Below are positions 2,767 through 13,243 of a DNA stretch of 64,000 bases, one piece after another. The notes under the pieces were generated by a model that saw nothing but the letters and a program-made list of their open reading frames with translations, did not search any database and was not told the origin of the DNA. The position numbers and the translations under genes were made by a program. The stretch is from Escherichia phage ECP2309. Position 1 is the stretch's first letter. Each line of letters starts with the position of its first letter. The DNA is taken from sequence record PP464953.1. One strand, given 5' to 3'.

Positions 2767-2795
2767 ATGTTACCTCACCCCATGGCAGATGTCAA
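2767..2795 (-). promoter_or_regulatory. sigma70-like promoter TTGACA-N17-TAACAT
   Basis: followed by hairpin GGGCA..TGCCC (2742-2756) then SD and ATG at 2712. Confidence 0.55.
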
Positions 2796-2826
2796 CGGTT
2801 TTTATAGTTCTTATATGACAGGCAGG

Positions 2827-2845
2827 CCCGGTGATTGTCTCCCCC
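2827..2845 (-). repeat. GGGAGACAAYCACCGGG motif copy
   Basis: reverse complement of the motif found on the plus strand at 12451-12468 and 12585-12603. Confidence 0.5.
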
Positions 2846-2929
2846 TGTTCCCAAGTGCCGCCCGTTTAATAAGAATAGCAAAAGGGGCCGAACAAGTCAA
2901 CCCCAAAATCAGTACCAAAACACTTTTAT

Positions 2930-3241
2930 TTATACGGTCCGATCATTGGCCTTTGTCCAGGACCTGGCGATCCGTTTCCCGGTCACCTGGAACGGAGGCT
3001 GCATTGTGTGTAATGAGTCCAGAGTAAGGGAGGACCGTTTACGGCGTATCTTCAGGATCGCTAACGTATTGTCCATCTCACGGCCAGGTCCTGGGCGGTA
3101 TGGTGTGCCTCCAGCGTTAAGGTTGATGATCTCATGTATTGAGATCCGGCGTTGTTTTGCTTCCGCATCTTTGAAGATAGCCAGCGGAGGCGCTATGCGT
3201 TGCCGATACCAATCTAAAACGGTTGGCGTAATAGCGATCAT
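2930..3241 (-). CDS. hypothetical protein
   Basis: track ORF 103 aa; start overlaps upstream stop (ATGA). Confidence 0.5.
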   Translation of the reverse strand: MIAITPTVLDWYRQRIAPPLAIFKDAEAKQRRISIHEIINLNAGGTPYRPGPGREMDNTLAILKIRRKRSSLTLDSLHTMQPPFQVTGKRIARSWTKANDRTV

Positions 3242-10772: not shown

Positions 10773-10816
10773 TTTACTTTATTGATGGCCCTGGAGTCAA
10801 GGCCATCTAAAAATAA
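10773..10816 (-). repeat. palindromic promoter/operator element, copy 3
   Basis: near-identical to copies 1 and 2. Confidence 0.7.
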
Positions 10817-12049: not shown

Positions 12050-12386
12050 CCATTAGTTAGAATTATTTTTTTTGGGCAGAATTCTCCAGCCGCCGCCCCT
12101 ACCAGGTTAACCATCGTTTTTTCGTACTCTTCTTTATGTTCCAACGCTCCCGCCATAGCCTTTTCAACCAGGGCGATAGCCTCAGCGTCATTAATCGCTA
12201 CATTTCCAGGGGATCAAATTACCTTTCATTTTTGTACCTCCTCTTCAATTGTTACCTGCCCTATAGCATAGGCCTACCAGGTTTGCAAGCTTTCACTCTC
12301 TCCTACCTGGTCAGTCAGGTCCTGCCAGGTTGGCCCCGCCAGGTTGCAACGGTTAGCGCATCAGGTTAGAATTTTTTTGAAAAGTG

Positions 12387-12510
12387 TTGACAGCGGCCCC
12401 GCCAGGTGGCACAATATACCTATCGGAAGGACGGCAGGCACCGGTGACGGGGGAGACAACCACCGGGGATGGGCGCTGCATAAAATGAGAACGGTTATCA
12501 TTATCATTTA
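12387..12510 (+). other. structured non-coding unit A (candidate sRNA or regulatory element)
   Basis: starts with TTGACA; contains GGGAGACAACCACCGGGG and ends with near-palindrome GGTTATCATTATCATT. Confidence 0.4.
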
Positions 12511-12530
12511 AAAATTTATGCAAAAAATCC

Positions 12531-12640
12531 TTGCTTTCTTTGTCCTGTGTGATACTATAATAACAAGCCGGGGCAACAGGGGCCGGGAGACAATCACCGG
12601 GGGTGCCCGTTATTCTGCAAACGAGAATGATTATCATTCA
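12531..12640 (+). other. structured non-coding unit B, related to unit A
   Basis: TATAAT at 12556-12561; contains GGGAGACAATCACCGGGGG and near-palindrome AATGATTATCATTC. Confidence 0.4.
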
Positions 12641-12765
12641 AAATTCTAAATGAGAACTTTTCGCATTTCATAAATTTAGTTAGCATGCTAATTACCTACC
12701 GTGACAATTCTATATAAAATAATACCTCCTTAAATATTTCCATATACAAATTTTAAAAATCCATT

Positions 12766-12932
12766 TCCGAAAACGAAAAATCGATTTCGTCCCCAAAAAT
12801 TTCAGGTCGAGCTCCGGAACGATTTCCAGAAAATCTGATTCAGAAAACGAAAAACAGATCGAGTACTAAGAAATTTATCGAGAAAAATTTTCAGAAAATT
12901 CAATCTTTGAAACGAAAAACAGATCGAGTACT
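12766..12932. repeat. iteron-like direct repeats GAAAACGAAAAA(C/T)(A/C)GATCGAGTACT
   Basis: copies at 12769-12790, 12843-12867, 12909-12932 in AT-rich DNA with many shorter repeats. Confidence 0.6.
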
Positions 12933-13243
12933 GAGAGAGATGTATCAAAACCTACTGAGAATAATGGGCTTATTGTTATAAAAGGTCAAAGGTAAGCTGG
13001 GAAAGTTCTGGTAGAAGGGTGAGGGTATGTGCGGAAAATCTGGAATAGTAACTTAAAGTACGGTGCGAACGATAGAATGAGCAGCACATCTTATCGCGCC
13101 TGTCTTGAAAAATCCATTTTAGTTTTCGATCCATTTTCTGATTTTCTAAGAATTTTAAAATATCCGGCCAGGTAAAATATCAAAAGGAGGAAATCCATTT
13201 TAGAAATCCTCCTTATACTTGATGTGCCAGGGATTTTCAAGTA

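Follow-up and report, generated by a model that had tools for sequence, protein, structure and literature searches.

A conserved 17-nt motif in the predicted transcript leaders of a Vequintavirus: a non-coding element that may act as a leader signal

A small module located just downstream of three bacterial-type promoters has as its conserved core the 17-nt motif GGGAGACAAYCACCGGG, which occurs three times in the window (the whole stretch of 64,000 nucleotides of Escherichia phage ECP2309 analyzed here). The motif represents a new conserved non-coding element and probably a regulatory signal within the initial 40 bases of the respective transcripts. We tentatively propose that it is a cis-acting transcript-leader signal, read either on the nascent RNA or on the non-template DNA strand, although the odds are slightly against this reading. 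A published description of the motif was not found, and exact-string matches in the literature were unrelated PCR primers.

In the window, GGGAGACAAYCACCGGG was found at 12451-12467 (+), 12585-12601 (+) and 2843-2827 (-). These three matches, all exact, are the only ones when up to two mismatches are permitted, and dinucleotide-preserving shuffles of the window gave no match in 100 out of 100 cases.

12451..12467, plus strand: motif copy 1 (GGGAGACAACCACCGGG), exact match
12585..12601, plus strand: motif copy 2 (GGGAGACAATCACCGGG), exact match, orthologous to the cross-genus unit
2827..2843, minus strand: motif copy 3 (GGGAGACAATCACCGGG on the minus strand), exact match

A single base differs among the three 17-mers, and copies 1 and 3 have two additional G in common on the 5' side. 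For the remainder of the 136-kb genome (Vequintavirus), we used the record of phage ECP2303 (PP261279.1, 100%; window position = record position + 459), in which a Hamming scan with up to three mismatches detected no fourth site. The 10-base invariant core, AGACAANCACC, occurs at the three motif sites and in one chance match within a tail-protein gene, and nowhere else. The preliminary description had reported a motif in three copies at distant loci, which our counts bear out; its end coordinates 2845, 12468 and 12603 overrun the common 17-mer by 1-2 nt. Recurrence at chance frequency across the genome, named there as the outcome that would speak against the motif, was not what we observed, with three copies versus none expected and none elsewhere in 136 kb. 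We regard the 17-mer as a non-random and probably functional site.

Beyond this phage, the core AGACAA-N-CACC is conserved, usually with SSTGCCYGYYAT after it. It is unchanged in Vequintavirus, Certrevirus (CR3, POP15, KaOmega, phiTE), Seunavirus SSE121, Hena1-like phages, Kashira and phiWec186, the last being a Phapecoctavirus and a member of another subfamily, and it carries a one-base insertion in Mydovirus (AGTACAAAACACC). The core was also found in unclassified IMG/VR contigs of 46.8 kb (at least four copies), 168 kb (one copy) and 7.8 kb (one copy). For the 46.8-kb contig, neither a 6.2-kb stretch (megablast) nor one 124-aa ORF (tblastn) gave a match among 50,697 phage records. The long ORFs of the 168-kb contig are all small. 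Orthologues of copy 3 are present in L008, Murica, CR3 and L239. The leader between promoter and motif shows no conservation, and neither do the motif flanks in general, with homologous 3' extensions following copies 2 and 3.

12602..12614, plus strand: 3' extension of copy 2 (GGTGCCCGTTATT), from alignments, with TGCC-G--ATT invariant across genera; the predicted 3' strand of the closing helix (RNAalifold)
2815..2826, minus strand: 3' extension of copy 3 (CCTGCCTGTCAT), homologous to the copy 2 extension

Invariance of the core across subfamilies and unrelated contigs points to purifying selection on the word itself.

The motif keeps a fixed orientation and a narrow range of distances relative to promoter-like sequences. 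In nearly every context, the motif is preceded on its own strand, at 21-28 nt (35 nt for copy 1), by a sigma-70 -10 element that is usually TG-extended, and this regularity holds across copies, genera and unrelated contigs.

12387..12415, plus strand: promoter P1, TTGACA-17-(TGg)CACAAT, 35 nt before copy 1; 10/12 in the promoter scan, TG before the -10
12531..12558, plus strand: promoter P2, TTGCTT-16-TGaTACTAT with an overlapping TATAAT, 26 nt before copy 2; from reading of the sequence
2872..2900, minus strand: promoter P3up, TTGACT-17-TGcTATTCT, 28 nt before copy 3; 9/12 in the promoter scan, TG present
2767..2795, minus strand: promoter P3down, canonical early promoter, TTGACA-17-TAACAT; 10/12, the promoter meant in the preliminary description

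P2 scored below threshold in the simple promoter scan; it matches the extended -10 pattern and is kept in orthologues. Promoters with a TG-extended -10 do not need a good -35. The TTTTGYTATTCTTAT of P3up is invariant in five lineages. A strict TGnTAnnnT at 21-28 nt upstream on the same strand was present in 15 of the 25 instances listed (about 11 of 16 distinct contexts), compared to a background of 6% of random 45-nt windows. Most of the others carry TATATT or TATAAT, resembling a -10, 22-25 nt upstream, TGgCACAAT precedes copy 1 by 35 nt, and no upstream -10 was detected by a TGnTAnnnT-type pattern in the Hena1-like leader (GATAAT) and in the doubtful L009. Since a sigma-70 promoter lies 21-35 nt upstream on its own strand, the motif would be transcribed early in the leader, at about +15 to +45 of the predicted transcript. 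The earlier proposal had related copy 3 to an early promoter located downstream of it. The distance from copy 3 to the -35 of P3down is indeed 31 bp, but this spacing is not general (63 bp for copy 1, and different again in relatives). The distances of 31, 63 and about 70 nt to the next promoter indicate that there is no fixed position, and we rejected a role as upstream activator site.

The same location brings in the main rival explanation, a double-stranded DNA operator, which we regard as less probable than a leader signal. It would be an asymmetric site of about 11-17 bp at +15 to +38, just past the polymerase footprint, where binding of a phage or host protein would prevent initiation or promoter escape from the three promoters, resulting in a small shut-off regulon. 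Repressor operators typically lie beside the downstream edge of the open complex, which is the position of the motif. However, the spacing to the -10 varies between 21 and 35 bp without helical phasing, and the site is neither a palindrome nor a direct repeat, which is unusual for repressors. A binding site for a phage regulator, as initially suggested, could take two forms: a DNA operator located at about +15 to +38, or a site on RNA.

Prediction of the leader structures placed the motif within hairpins.

12434..12479, plus strand: predicted leader hairpin around copy 1 (MFE fold, -21.1 kcal/mol, z = -2.0)
12571..12608, plus strand: predicted leader hairpin around copy 2, closing helix GGGCA/UGCCC (MFE fold, z = -0.13, not significant)
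2818..2865, minus strand: predicted 5'-terminal leader hairpin around copy 3, from the predicted +1 (MFE fold, z = -1.1)

Folded from the predicted +1, about 16 of 19 leaders yielded a single dominant hairpin around the motif, ACAA being located in or beside the apical loop. Values of z ranged from -3.5 to +0.35 from predicted start sites and were below -2 in 4 of the 19; the L008 orthologue of the copy 3 hairpin had z = -3.2. The predicted hairpin of copy 3 starts at +1, that of copy 2 at +7 and that of copy 1 at +13. The closing helix was predicted independently by RNAalifold, is pair-compatible in 90% (35-51% in slid controls) and includes 10 G.U cells, which are permitted on the motif-sense strand only. 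Covariation in a larger alignment was no better than in shuffles (104/500), and an earlier covariation signal was due to three poorly aligned rows and was lost in a better alignment. The pairing energy of the 5' and 3' flanks was no better than that of shuffled flanks (z = -1.05) or non-cognate flanks (P = 0.06); the flanks are G+C-rich, making chance pairing easy. The inner helix is paired in 67-70% across orthologues, and copies 1 and 3 cannot form the same register. The closing helix is compatible with the sequences and statistically unproven. For the operator, the conservation in primary sequence with no demonstrable RNA covariation is favorable, while hairpin-compatible flanks and tolerance of G.U on the sense strand would be unexpected for a pure DNA site.

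The predicted leaders may also be compared with stem-loop mRNA stabilizers of the ompA type, stable hairpins that begin within a few nucleotides of the RNA 5' end, and with the 5' hairpins of the other early mRNAs of this phage. In the window, a G+C-rich hairpin with a CA-rich spacer behind it follows many early promoters, and the motif-bearing leaders resemble these at larger size; the GGGGCAA...GTGCCC of copy 2 is comparable to GGGGCAAAAGTGCCC after P3down. Ordinary stabilizing hairpins lack a conserved loop, whereas the motif has 11 loop-proximal bases that do not vary between subfamilies, implying that they are specifically recognized.

In the model we favor for a leader signal, a module of about 30 nt with the 17-mer as its core would be positioned at about +15 to +45 of three short units. 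These would be transcribed by the host sigma-70 RNA polymerase from promoters with mostly TG-extended -10 elements, two units rightward and one leftward, with predicted starts at about 12422 (+), 12565 (+) and 2865 (-). In most copies and relatives, the leader would fold by pairing of its first transcribed bases with bases just 3' of the motif, with ACAA-N at or near the hairpin tip. A factor recognizing the motif would co-regulate the three units after initiation, by way of elongation or termination behavior, or of leader stability or processing. The model presumes that the promoters fire, that the hairpins form, and that such a factor exists and has this effect.

Known leader signals offer two comparisons. 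The nut sites of lambda (boxA/boxB) and the put RNAs of HK022 are promoter-proximal cis-acting antitermination signals that are read co-transcriptionally. Our motif shares with them the occurrence of short, near-identical copies tens of nucleotides behind early promoters that fire in opposite genomic directions, unconserved flanks and a single-base difference between copies. Its location shortly downstream of predicted early promoters (21-35 nt from the -10) is that of a nut site. In contrast to lambda boxB, the motif lacks a conserved perfect stem with pentaloop. A boxB-like stem with a GNRA-like pentaloop was not found: GGGA-GACAA-UC(A)CC, with a bulge, is open to copy 2, but the C at position 10 of copy 1 disrupts the closing pair and moves the fold to another register, and copy 3 has no 5' partner. 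The consensus of boxA is CGCUCUUUA, and nothing resembling it is present in the leaders AUCGGAAGGACGGCAGGCACCGGUGACGG, AAGCCGGGGCAACAGGGGCC and ACGGGCGGCACUUGGGAACAGG. Also unlike the lambdoid systems, this phage is virulent and non-lambdoid, with no intrinsic terminator inside the three-gene unit of copy 3.

The second comparison is the ops/JUMPStart element, through which RfaH is recruited by way of the non-template strand. It is a 12-nt sequence-specific signal of the 5' leader that is strand-specific, needs no conserved RNA fold and lies at variable distance from the promoter (PMC5995543). Its consensus is GGCGGTAGnnTG, with G4, G5, A7, G8 and T11 being essential (PMC5995543). The motif would similarly be a strand-specific leader signal at variable promoter distance with no conserved fold required, and its predicted position matches that of ops/JUMPStart, on the non-template strand within the promoter-proximal part of the 5' leader. 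Its G5, C14 and, usually, G15 correspond to the G(-10)/Y(-1)/G(+1) spacing of the consensus pause embedded in ops. In L005 and L017b, AAGCCGGGGCGGTAG beside the motif resembles JUMPStart AAGCCAGGGGCGGTAG (PMC4384082), and L014 contains the ops-like string GGTAGCGTGTTTTTT. Some relatives carry GGCGGTAG. However, the motif sequence is unrelated to GGCGGTAGnnTG, the copy 2 leader reads GGGGCAACAG with the loss of essential G4, G5 and T6, and ops-like strings precede the motif in one lineage and follow it in another. With up to two mismatches, GGCGGTAGnnTG has no match in the 136-kb genome; matches with three mismatches are common background. A tblastn search with E. coli RfaH as query found no homologue in the phage. 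RfaH/ops itself was rejected, given that ops-like strings are present in some relatives and absent from this phage, in which tblastn found no RfaH homologue. A more specific version of the leader signal, a co-transcriptional recruitment signal comparable to nut and ops that loads a dedicated factor onto host RNA polymerase from extended -10 promoters, appears doubtful to us.

The surroundings of the copies differ. Copies 1 and 2 are located inside a gene-free region of 935 bp (12156-13091), in a direction opposite to all neighboring genes. The leader of copy 3 runs leftward, begins within the terminator of one early gene and crosses the canonical early promoter of the next gene.

2884..2904, minus strand: terminator-like hairpin belonging to the upstream gene; its loop contains the -35 of P3up, making a composite terminator-promoter

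A terminator is annotated at the same place in phage Murica, and the hairpin is kept in CR3 and L239. Such composite cassettes of promoter and terminator are known from T4-like phages as PeSLs, for which shuffling is documented (PMC2839356, PMC4122927). The motif might accordingly be a passenger in a mobile terminator-promoter-leader cassette, with the 17-mer mainly serving as a patch of homology for recombination, an explanation that we consider improbable. Copy 3, and only copy 3, sits in a compact module of stem-loop terminator and sigma-70 early promoter between small early ORFs of a plastic region. Its composite arrangement is kept in CR3 and L239 before unrelated genes, and the module recurs in other genera; the genes behind it in the window and those behind it in a CR3-like contig are unrelated. 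The recombination or processing site that was also suggested initially finds its one support in the portability of this copy-3-type cassette. Other repeated stem-loop-promoter modules of the early region, three identical copies on the minus strand at 10800, 10179 and 6461, and the PeSL-mediated shuffling of T4-like phages (PMC4122927, PMC2839356) fit the same idea. As a point against the leader signal, modules of the copy-2 and copy-3 types share homology over their full extent, -10 regions included, so that the fixed orientation and distance could be mere inheritance. Against the passenger explanation, homology exchange would keep long identity, and only 11-17 nt are invariant, the adjacent leader diverging even between relatives as close as the window and L008; the purifying selection on the word indicated by its invariance across subfamilies and unrelated contigs also argues against a passenger. 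PeSLs are moreover defined by terminator and promoter, whereas here the leader motif is the invariant part, and copies 1 and 2 lie away from gene junctions.

No intrinsic terminator was found between copy 3 and its three downstream genes, leaving an antitermination role without an obvious substrate there. In contig L014, one copy is followed after about 45 nt by a bidirectional terminator and a convergent gene, suggesting that the RNA itself is the product in that case. The three copies could likewise be genes for small trans-acting phage RNAs that display single-stranded AGACAAnCACC as seed or recognition loop and pair with, or sequester, a host RNA or protein that is itself conserved. Each of copies 1 and 2 has a predicted promoter of its own on a strand without genes, the L014 (+) copy spans about 95 nt from promoter to terminator, and an invariant sequence in a predicted loop, conserved among phages of different Enterobacterales hosts, would fit a conserved host target. 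We nevertheless give this explanation little credence: in this phage no terminator follows copies 1, 2 or 3, no complementary site (up to three mismatches in 14 nt) exists in the phage genome besides the motif's own opposite strand, and Rfam gave no match. The full 17-mer or its complement has 83 scattered matches in 185,579 bacterial species genomes, about the chance level, with the sole Enterobacterales match of the 17-mer in a coding region and no Enterobacterales locus recovered.

The gene-free region contains further repeats, among them two palindromic boxes that neighbor the motif.

12485..12501, no strand assigned: palindromic box after copy 1 (ATGAGAACGGTTATCAT), outside the motif, repeat family D4
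12621..12637, no strand assigned: palindromic box after copy 2 (ACGAGAATGATTATCAT), outside the motif, 12/14 to the 7-1-7 Fur-box consensus

These boxes have 6 matches compared to 0.26 expected, and the copy 2 box is conserved across genera. In L310, L312/L323 and L307/L320, the motif is absent and the downstream palindromic box is kept. Nearby are CCNGCCAGGT boxes and iteron-like repeats, the latter containing GATC within an A+T-rich stretch (12600-12900, about 30% G+C). A neighborhood this rich in likely protein-binding sites favors the DNA operator, as does an 88-aa plus-strand ORF immediately upstream of the region in phiWec186 and Kashira. Yet this ORF has no recognizable DNA-binding domain in Pfam and is absent from our phage, and the 46.8-kb contig has the motif without any accompanying palindromic or other boxes.

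The same features could indicate an origin. In T7, the primary origin consists of a promoter plus an A+T-rich stretch, and primase sites belong to the class 5'-(G/T)(G/T)GTC. Copies 1 and 2 follow two tandem promoters that face the A+T-rich stretch with its iteron-like repeats, so GACAA (complement TTGTC) might be a start site for a T7-gp4-like primase or a processing point of an origin transcript. A gp4-type primase-helicase was reported in rV5 (PMC3606486). This seems very unlikely to explain the motif, as copy 3 and the four copies of the 46.8-kb contig are among ordinary small early genes and not in origin-like DNA, a pentanucleotide primase site cannot account for 11-17 invariant bases, and skew analysis of rV5 located no origin (PMC3606486).

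The repeat had first been noticed through a shared peptide, GxPGDCLP, in two spurious ORFs. The peptide is real as a translation artifact, reading GRPGDCLP in ORF 2767-3027 (+) and GTPGDCLP in ORF 12353-12637 (-). Conservation of the motif as this part of a small protein on the opposite strand is hardly credible. The minus-strand ORF at copy 2 is on the strand of all neighboring genes and has its start within the palindromic box; its sequence is MIIILVCRITGTPGDCLP, with MRIILISRIAGTPGDCL at the same place in CR3. However, the ORF is not kept intact in other genera (Mydovirus has a stop after 7 codons, and the frame changes in SSE121), its length varies from 7 to 94 aa with unrelated C-termini, and the region is unannotated in most records. 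The same ORF reads copy 1 in another frame, and for copy 3 the coding strand would be the one without genes. No variation occurs at the four-fold and two-fold degenerate third positions of GGT, GAT and TGT, and the middle codon does vary at its second position (D, G or V), the opposite of a coding pattern. On the plus strand, the mini-ORF VPVILQ... would need a GTG or CTG start and is frame-shifted in L005. A leaderless minus-strand mRNA from TAGAAT (12648-12643) was also rejected, as that promoter is not conserved in other genera.

Several other identities were dismissed. Rfam 15 gave no match at the gathering score in the 64-kb window and only chance-level matches under relaxed settings, with E values up to 5 allowed for 12150-13100 and up to 1 for five related loci. 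One Mydovirus record annotates a 'tRNA-Met' on the opposite strand over the orthologous stretch; ARAGORN, which detected the real 7-tRNA cluster of the phage, finds no tRNA there or in the window. A Shine-Dalgarno or STAB-SD role of GGGAG was rejected, because the G-run is not conserved (GCGAGAC or GGAAGAC in relatives), and so was a G-quadruplex, with four G-tracts in copies 2 and 3 only and missing in a distant contig. Resemblance to ToxI mimicry as in phage phiTE is weak and on the opposite strand (GGTGATT).

The only genomic study to consider transcription in rV5 predicted promoters and terminators and labeled the 0.9-kb region of copies 1 and 2 'non-coding' (PMC3606486). Gene regulation in rV5-like phages is essentially unexplored, despite their wide use in phage-therapy collections against E. 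coli, Salmonella, Klebsiella and Cronobacter. If the motif were a recruitment signal, it would be common to large virulent enterobacterial myoviruses of two subfamilies and to some uncultured phages, and it would define a small post-initiation regulon that could include origin-region transcripts. An invariant word of 11-17 nt behind a promoter amid drifting surroundings provides a concrete and cheap experimental handle, and it marks transcripts of a gene-free, origin-like region that are worth mapping.

An exact scan of the window located GGGAGACAAYCACCGGG at 12451-12467 (plus strand, copy 1), 12585-12601 (plus strand, copy 2) and 2827-2843 (minus strand, copy 3), with no match in shuffled window sequences, confirming the preliminary description of a motif with three copies at two loci. 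The window matches Escherichia phage ECP2303 (PP261279.1), an rV5-like member of the genus Vequintavirus, with 100% identity; window position equals PP261279.1 position plus 459, the first 459 window bases being the record end. In the other 72 kb of the genome there was no further site with up to three mismatches to the 17-mer, and the 10-base core AGACAANCACC occurred only in the three copies and in one chance match within a tail-protein gene. A chance-level frequency genome-wide would have refuted the motif; with only three copies in the whole genome, it stands. The peptide GxPGDCLP, reported as common to two ORFs, is a by-product of translating the motif's complement. Coding sequence is a minor alternative and unlikely on both strands: the synonymous sites of GGT, GAT and TGT are invariant, yet a second codon position varies.

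The genes annotated around the copies are all small, hypothetical, early and on the minus strand, and by the published rV5 layout, with its roughly 40-kb leftward early block (PMC3606486), they belong to that block. Copies 1 and 2 are spaced 134 bp apart inside a 935-bp stretch without annotated gene (12156-13091), itself within a block of minus-strand genes.

Features around the motif copies (window positions)
Ahead of copy 1, plus strand: promoter-like site P1, TTGACA-17-TGgCACAAT
Ahead of copy 2, plus strand: promoter-like site P2, TTGCTT-16-TGaTACTAT
12273-12411: five CCNGCCAGGT boxes, in the gene-free region
12768-12936: three iteron-like repeats GAAAACGAAAAAYMGATCGAG, each containing GATC, in the gene-free region
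12485-12501, 12621-12637, 12648-12667, 11-27, 128-142, 146-160: palindromic box ATGAGAATGATTCTCAT
2904-2884, minus strand: terminator-like hairpin of the gene upstream of copy 3
Ahead of copy 3, minus strand: promoter with -35 TTGACT in the loop of that hairpin and -10 TGcTATTCT at 2880-2872

The gene-free region, which also includes an A+T-rich stretch (~30% G+C), is labeled 'non-coding' and nothing more in the rV5 paper (PMC3606486). Its architecture recurs in CR3, POP15, SSE121 and Mydovirus. We regard it as a candidate for an origin of replication or for a regulatory hub; that the motif itself is an origin priming signal is a minor alternative.

Copy 3 lies between two early genes, in the order hairpin, promoter, 28 nt, motif, 31 nt, and the canonical early promoter of the next gene (TTGACA-17-TAACAT), the proximity to which had been described correctly. 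From the promoter order at all three copies it follows that each is sense-oriented, 26-35 nt downstream of a -10 on its own strand. Three identical 42-nt modules TTTTAGATGGCC-TTGACTCCA-GGGCCATCAATAAAGTAAAYT at the minus-strand promoters 10800, 10179 and 6461, each a stem-loop (GATGGCC/GGCCATC) with the -35 hexamer in the loop and then the -10, resemble PeSL-type composite cassettes. Passive carriage of the motif in such a cassette (PMC4122927) is a further minor reading. Most early promoters (minus strand, e.g., 11300, 10618, 8780, 4949 and 2795) are followed at about +10 to +30 by a G+C-rich hairpin, then a CA-rich spacer and a ribosome-binding site (examples GGCGGGAAAACTTCCCGCC, GGGGCAAAAGTGCCC, then CACACAAC); hairpin plus CA-rich spacer is a leader architecture common to early mRNAs.

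Relatives were collected by exact-pattern scans of IMG/VR and by BLAST against 50,697 phage records. The arrangement is kept in other Vequintaviruses (L005, L008, L010, L013, L017 and Murica) with clearly different flanks. Other genera retain 80-90% identity over the segment that runs from copy 2 to the palindromic box, although neighboring DNA is no longer alignable: Certrevirus (CR3, POP15, KaOmega, phiTE), Seunavirus SSE121, Mydovirus, Hena1-like phages, Serratia phage Kashira and, in another subfamily, Phapecoctavirus phiWec186. AGACAA-N-CACC and the subsequent TGCC-G--ATT are invariant across the Vequintaviruses and other genera aligned, except in Mydovirus, where the motif carries a one-base insertion (AGTACAAAACACC). 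The copy-3-type module recurs in CR3 and two metagenomic contigs (GGGGTTGACTTGTTCGCCCC-TTTTTGYTATTCT, 28 nt, motif, CCTGCCYGYYAT), ahead of a gene unrelated to that in the window. A 46.8-kb contig carries the motif at least four times, each in the order terminator, TGnTATAAT, 21-23 nt, motif, U-run; a second promoter and small gene come next at three, and at one a bidirectional terminator and convergent gene, forming a self-contained ~95-nt unit. The phage collection gave no hit for a 6.2-kb stretch of this contig by megablast, or for one of its ORFs by tblastn. A 168-kb contig holds one further copy, behind TTGACA-17-TATGAT. In the unrelated, G+C-rich contig L009 (IMGVR_UViG_3300025875_000343, 2500-2580), the motif supplies the loop and the 3' side of a hairpin with nine perfect base pairs (CCCCCGGTG-GGAGACAAT-CACCGGGGG), 22 nt downstream of TTGACT...TGaTCACAAT; this could be a genuine remote member or a coincidental match. 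The literature searched makes no mention of the motif. We conclude that it is a real, conserved, previously undescribed non-coding element.

A palindromic box (ATGAGAAYGRTTATCAT) follows copies 1 and 2 after 17-19 nt. The window has six matches to ATGAGAATGATTCTCAT within three mismatches, against 0.26 expected; a second cluster (11-27, 128-142, 146-160) occupies another gene-free region, at a junction of plus and minus gene blocks and at the record end/window start. The box agrees with the 7-1-7 Fur-box consensus TGATAATnATTATCA at 12 of 14 positions, with a symmetric T-to-G/A-to-C change in most genera. It probably serves as an operator bound by a dimeric regulator, which could be host Fur or a protein of the phage. 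Since certain lineages have the box and lack the motif, and the distant 46.8-kb contig has the motif and lacks the box, the two are separable, leaving the upstream promoter as the motif's only constant partner.

Of the 25 listed instances, 15 (about 11 of 16 distinct contexts) have a strict extended -10 (TGnTAnnnT) whose end lies 21-28 nt ahead of the motif; among 45-nt windows taken at random from the phage genome, 6% contain this pattern. The statistic overstates independence, since there is partial homology among the contexts, with similar -10 regions in the modules of copy-2 type and copy-3 type. Among the other instances, most carry TATATT or TATAAT (22-25 nt), copy 1 carries TGgCACAAT (35 nt), and two are without such a pattern, the Hena1-like leader (GATAAT) and L009. 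Between -10 and motif the sequence diverges freely and the length is kept. An Srd-like anti-sigma protein has been proposed for rV5 (PMC3606486); extended -10 promoters would be compatible with transcription persisting after an anti-sigma factor targets -35 recognition.

When 19 leaders were folded with the predicted +1 as their start, about 16 formed a single dominant hairpin enclosing the motif (z-scores -3.5 to +0.35), usually closed by pairing of 5'-proximal bases with those directly 3' of the motif, with ACAA at or beside the apical loop. RNAalifold independently predicted the same closing helix. In a 12-sequence alignment of non-E. coli genera it is 89.6% paired vs. 35-51% in slid controls, and its 10 G.U cells are workable on the motif-sense strand only; covariation there was no better than in shuffles (104/500), and an earlier significant-looking result was rejected as dependent on poorly aligned rows. 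Flank-pairing energy was not better than with shuffled (z = -1.05) or non-cognate flanks (P = 0.06), and the inner helix is not conserved. The hairpin is thus plausible and consistent but unproven; selection acts mainly on primary sequence. The main rival to the reading favored below, in which the motif would be a double-stranded DNA operator of asymmetric sequence (+15 to +38), appears to us less probable than that reading, though not remote.

No Rfam family matched the motif, and ARAGORN called no tRNA in the window. Klebsiella phage L018 (OY978796.1) has three annotated tRNA genes (Lys, Ile, Met; 1878-2573) that ARAGORN did not recover and that are probably false; its 'tRNA-Met' covers the conserved motif-to-palindrome stretch, and a tRNA reading there is unsupported. 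A genuine cluster of seven tRNA genes lies outside the window (L003 29717-30528; PP261279.1 ~92716-93527), one of which, 99 nt long and called with a 4-base anticodon (atcc), could be intron-containing or otherwise unusual. The 17-mer and its complement had no enriched counterpart in bacterial genomes, and the phage genome no second complementary site; a trans-acting sRNA seed is a minor alternative. Resemblance to ops/JUMPStart (consensus from PMC5995543 and PMC4384082), which recruits RfaH in the known element, is real in some relatives, where such strings adjoin the motif: L005 (~2810, motif-sense coordinates) and L017b (~1057) have AAGCCGGGGCGGTAG upstream (15/16 to JUMPStart), and the 46.8-kb contig L014 (~3334) has ops-like GGTAGCGTGTTTTTT/GGGGTAGCGTGTTTTTT downstream (ops positions 4-12 identical). 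This candidate was rejected: it is absent from the window phage, inconsistent in position among relatives, and close to background in mismatch count. No RfaH homolog was found in the phage.

Upstream of the motif unit, non-E. coli genera carry a second, very highly conserved ~100-nt segment (GCCACCCCACGGCGAAAAGGCGGGGCTAAC...GGAAGGTGGATCGCCGGTAG) with its own promoter.

Positions of the ~100-nt segment
L019 2320-2440; L020 2340-2440; L018 2320-2410
L136 1385-1470; L137 1340-1420; L138 1325-1420

Its hairpin of variable length has a covarying stem (ACCAGG...CCTGGT), and it looks like a structured RNA, with no Rfam match; the window has a mere remnant ahead of copy 1 (CGGAAGG..CCGGTGA). Immediately ahead of the conserved leader region, phiWec186 (L136 1075-1341) and Kashira (L137 1028-1294) encode on the plus strand an 88-aa protein (phrog_19316) with no Pfam domain and no homolog in the window phage.

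Judged from sequence, the motif is best supported as a conserved, promoter-proximal, transcribed leader element of three sigma-70 transcription units. We tentatively propose, at slightly less than even confidence, a cis-acting signal on the nascent RNA or non-template strand for post-initiation control. A trans-acting factor would read the motif there and then control the three transcripts at the level of elongation, or of their stability or processing. For copy 3, the lack of an intrinsic terminator inside the three-gene unit makes control of elongation a less appealing option. The motif falls within a known category, the promoter-proximal regulatory signals of phages.
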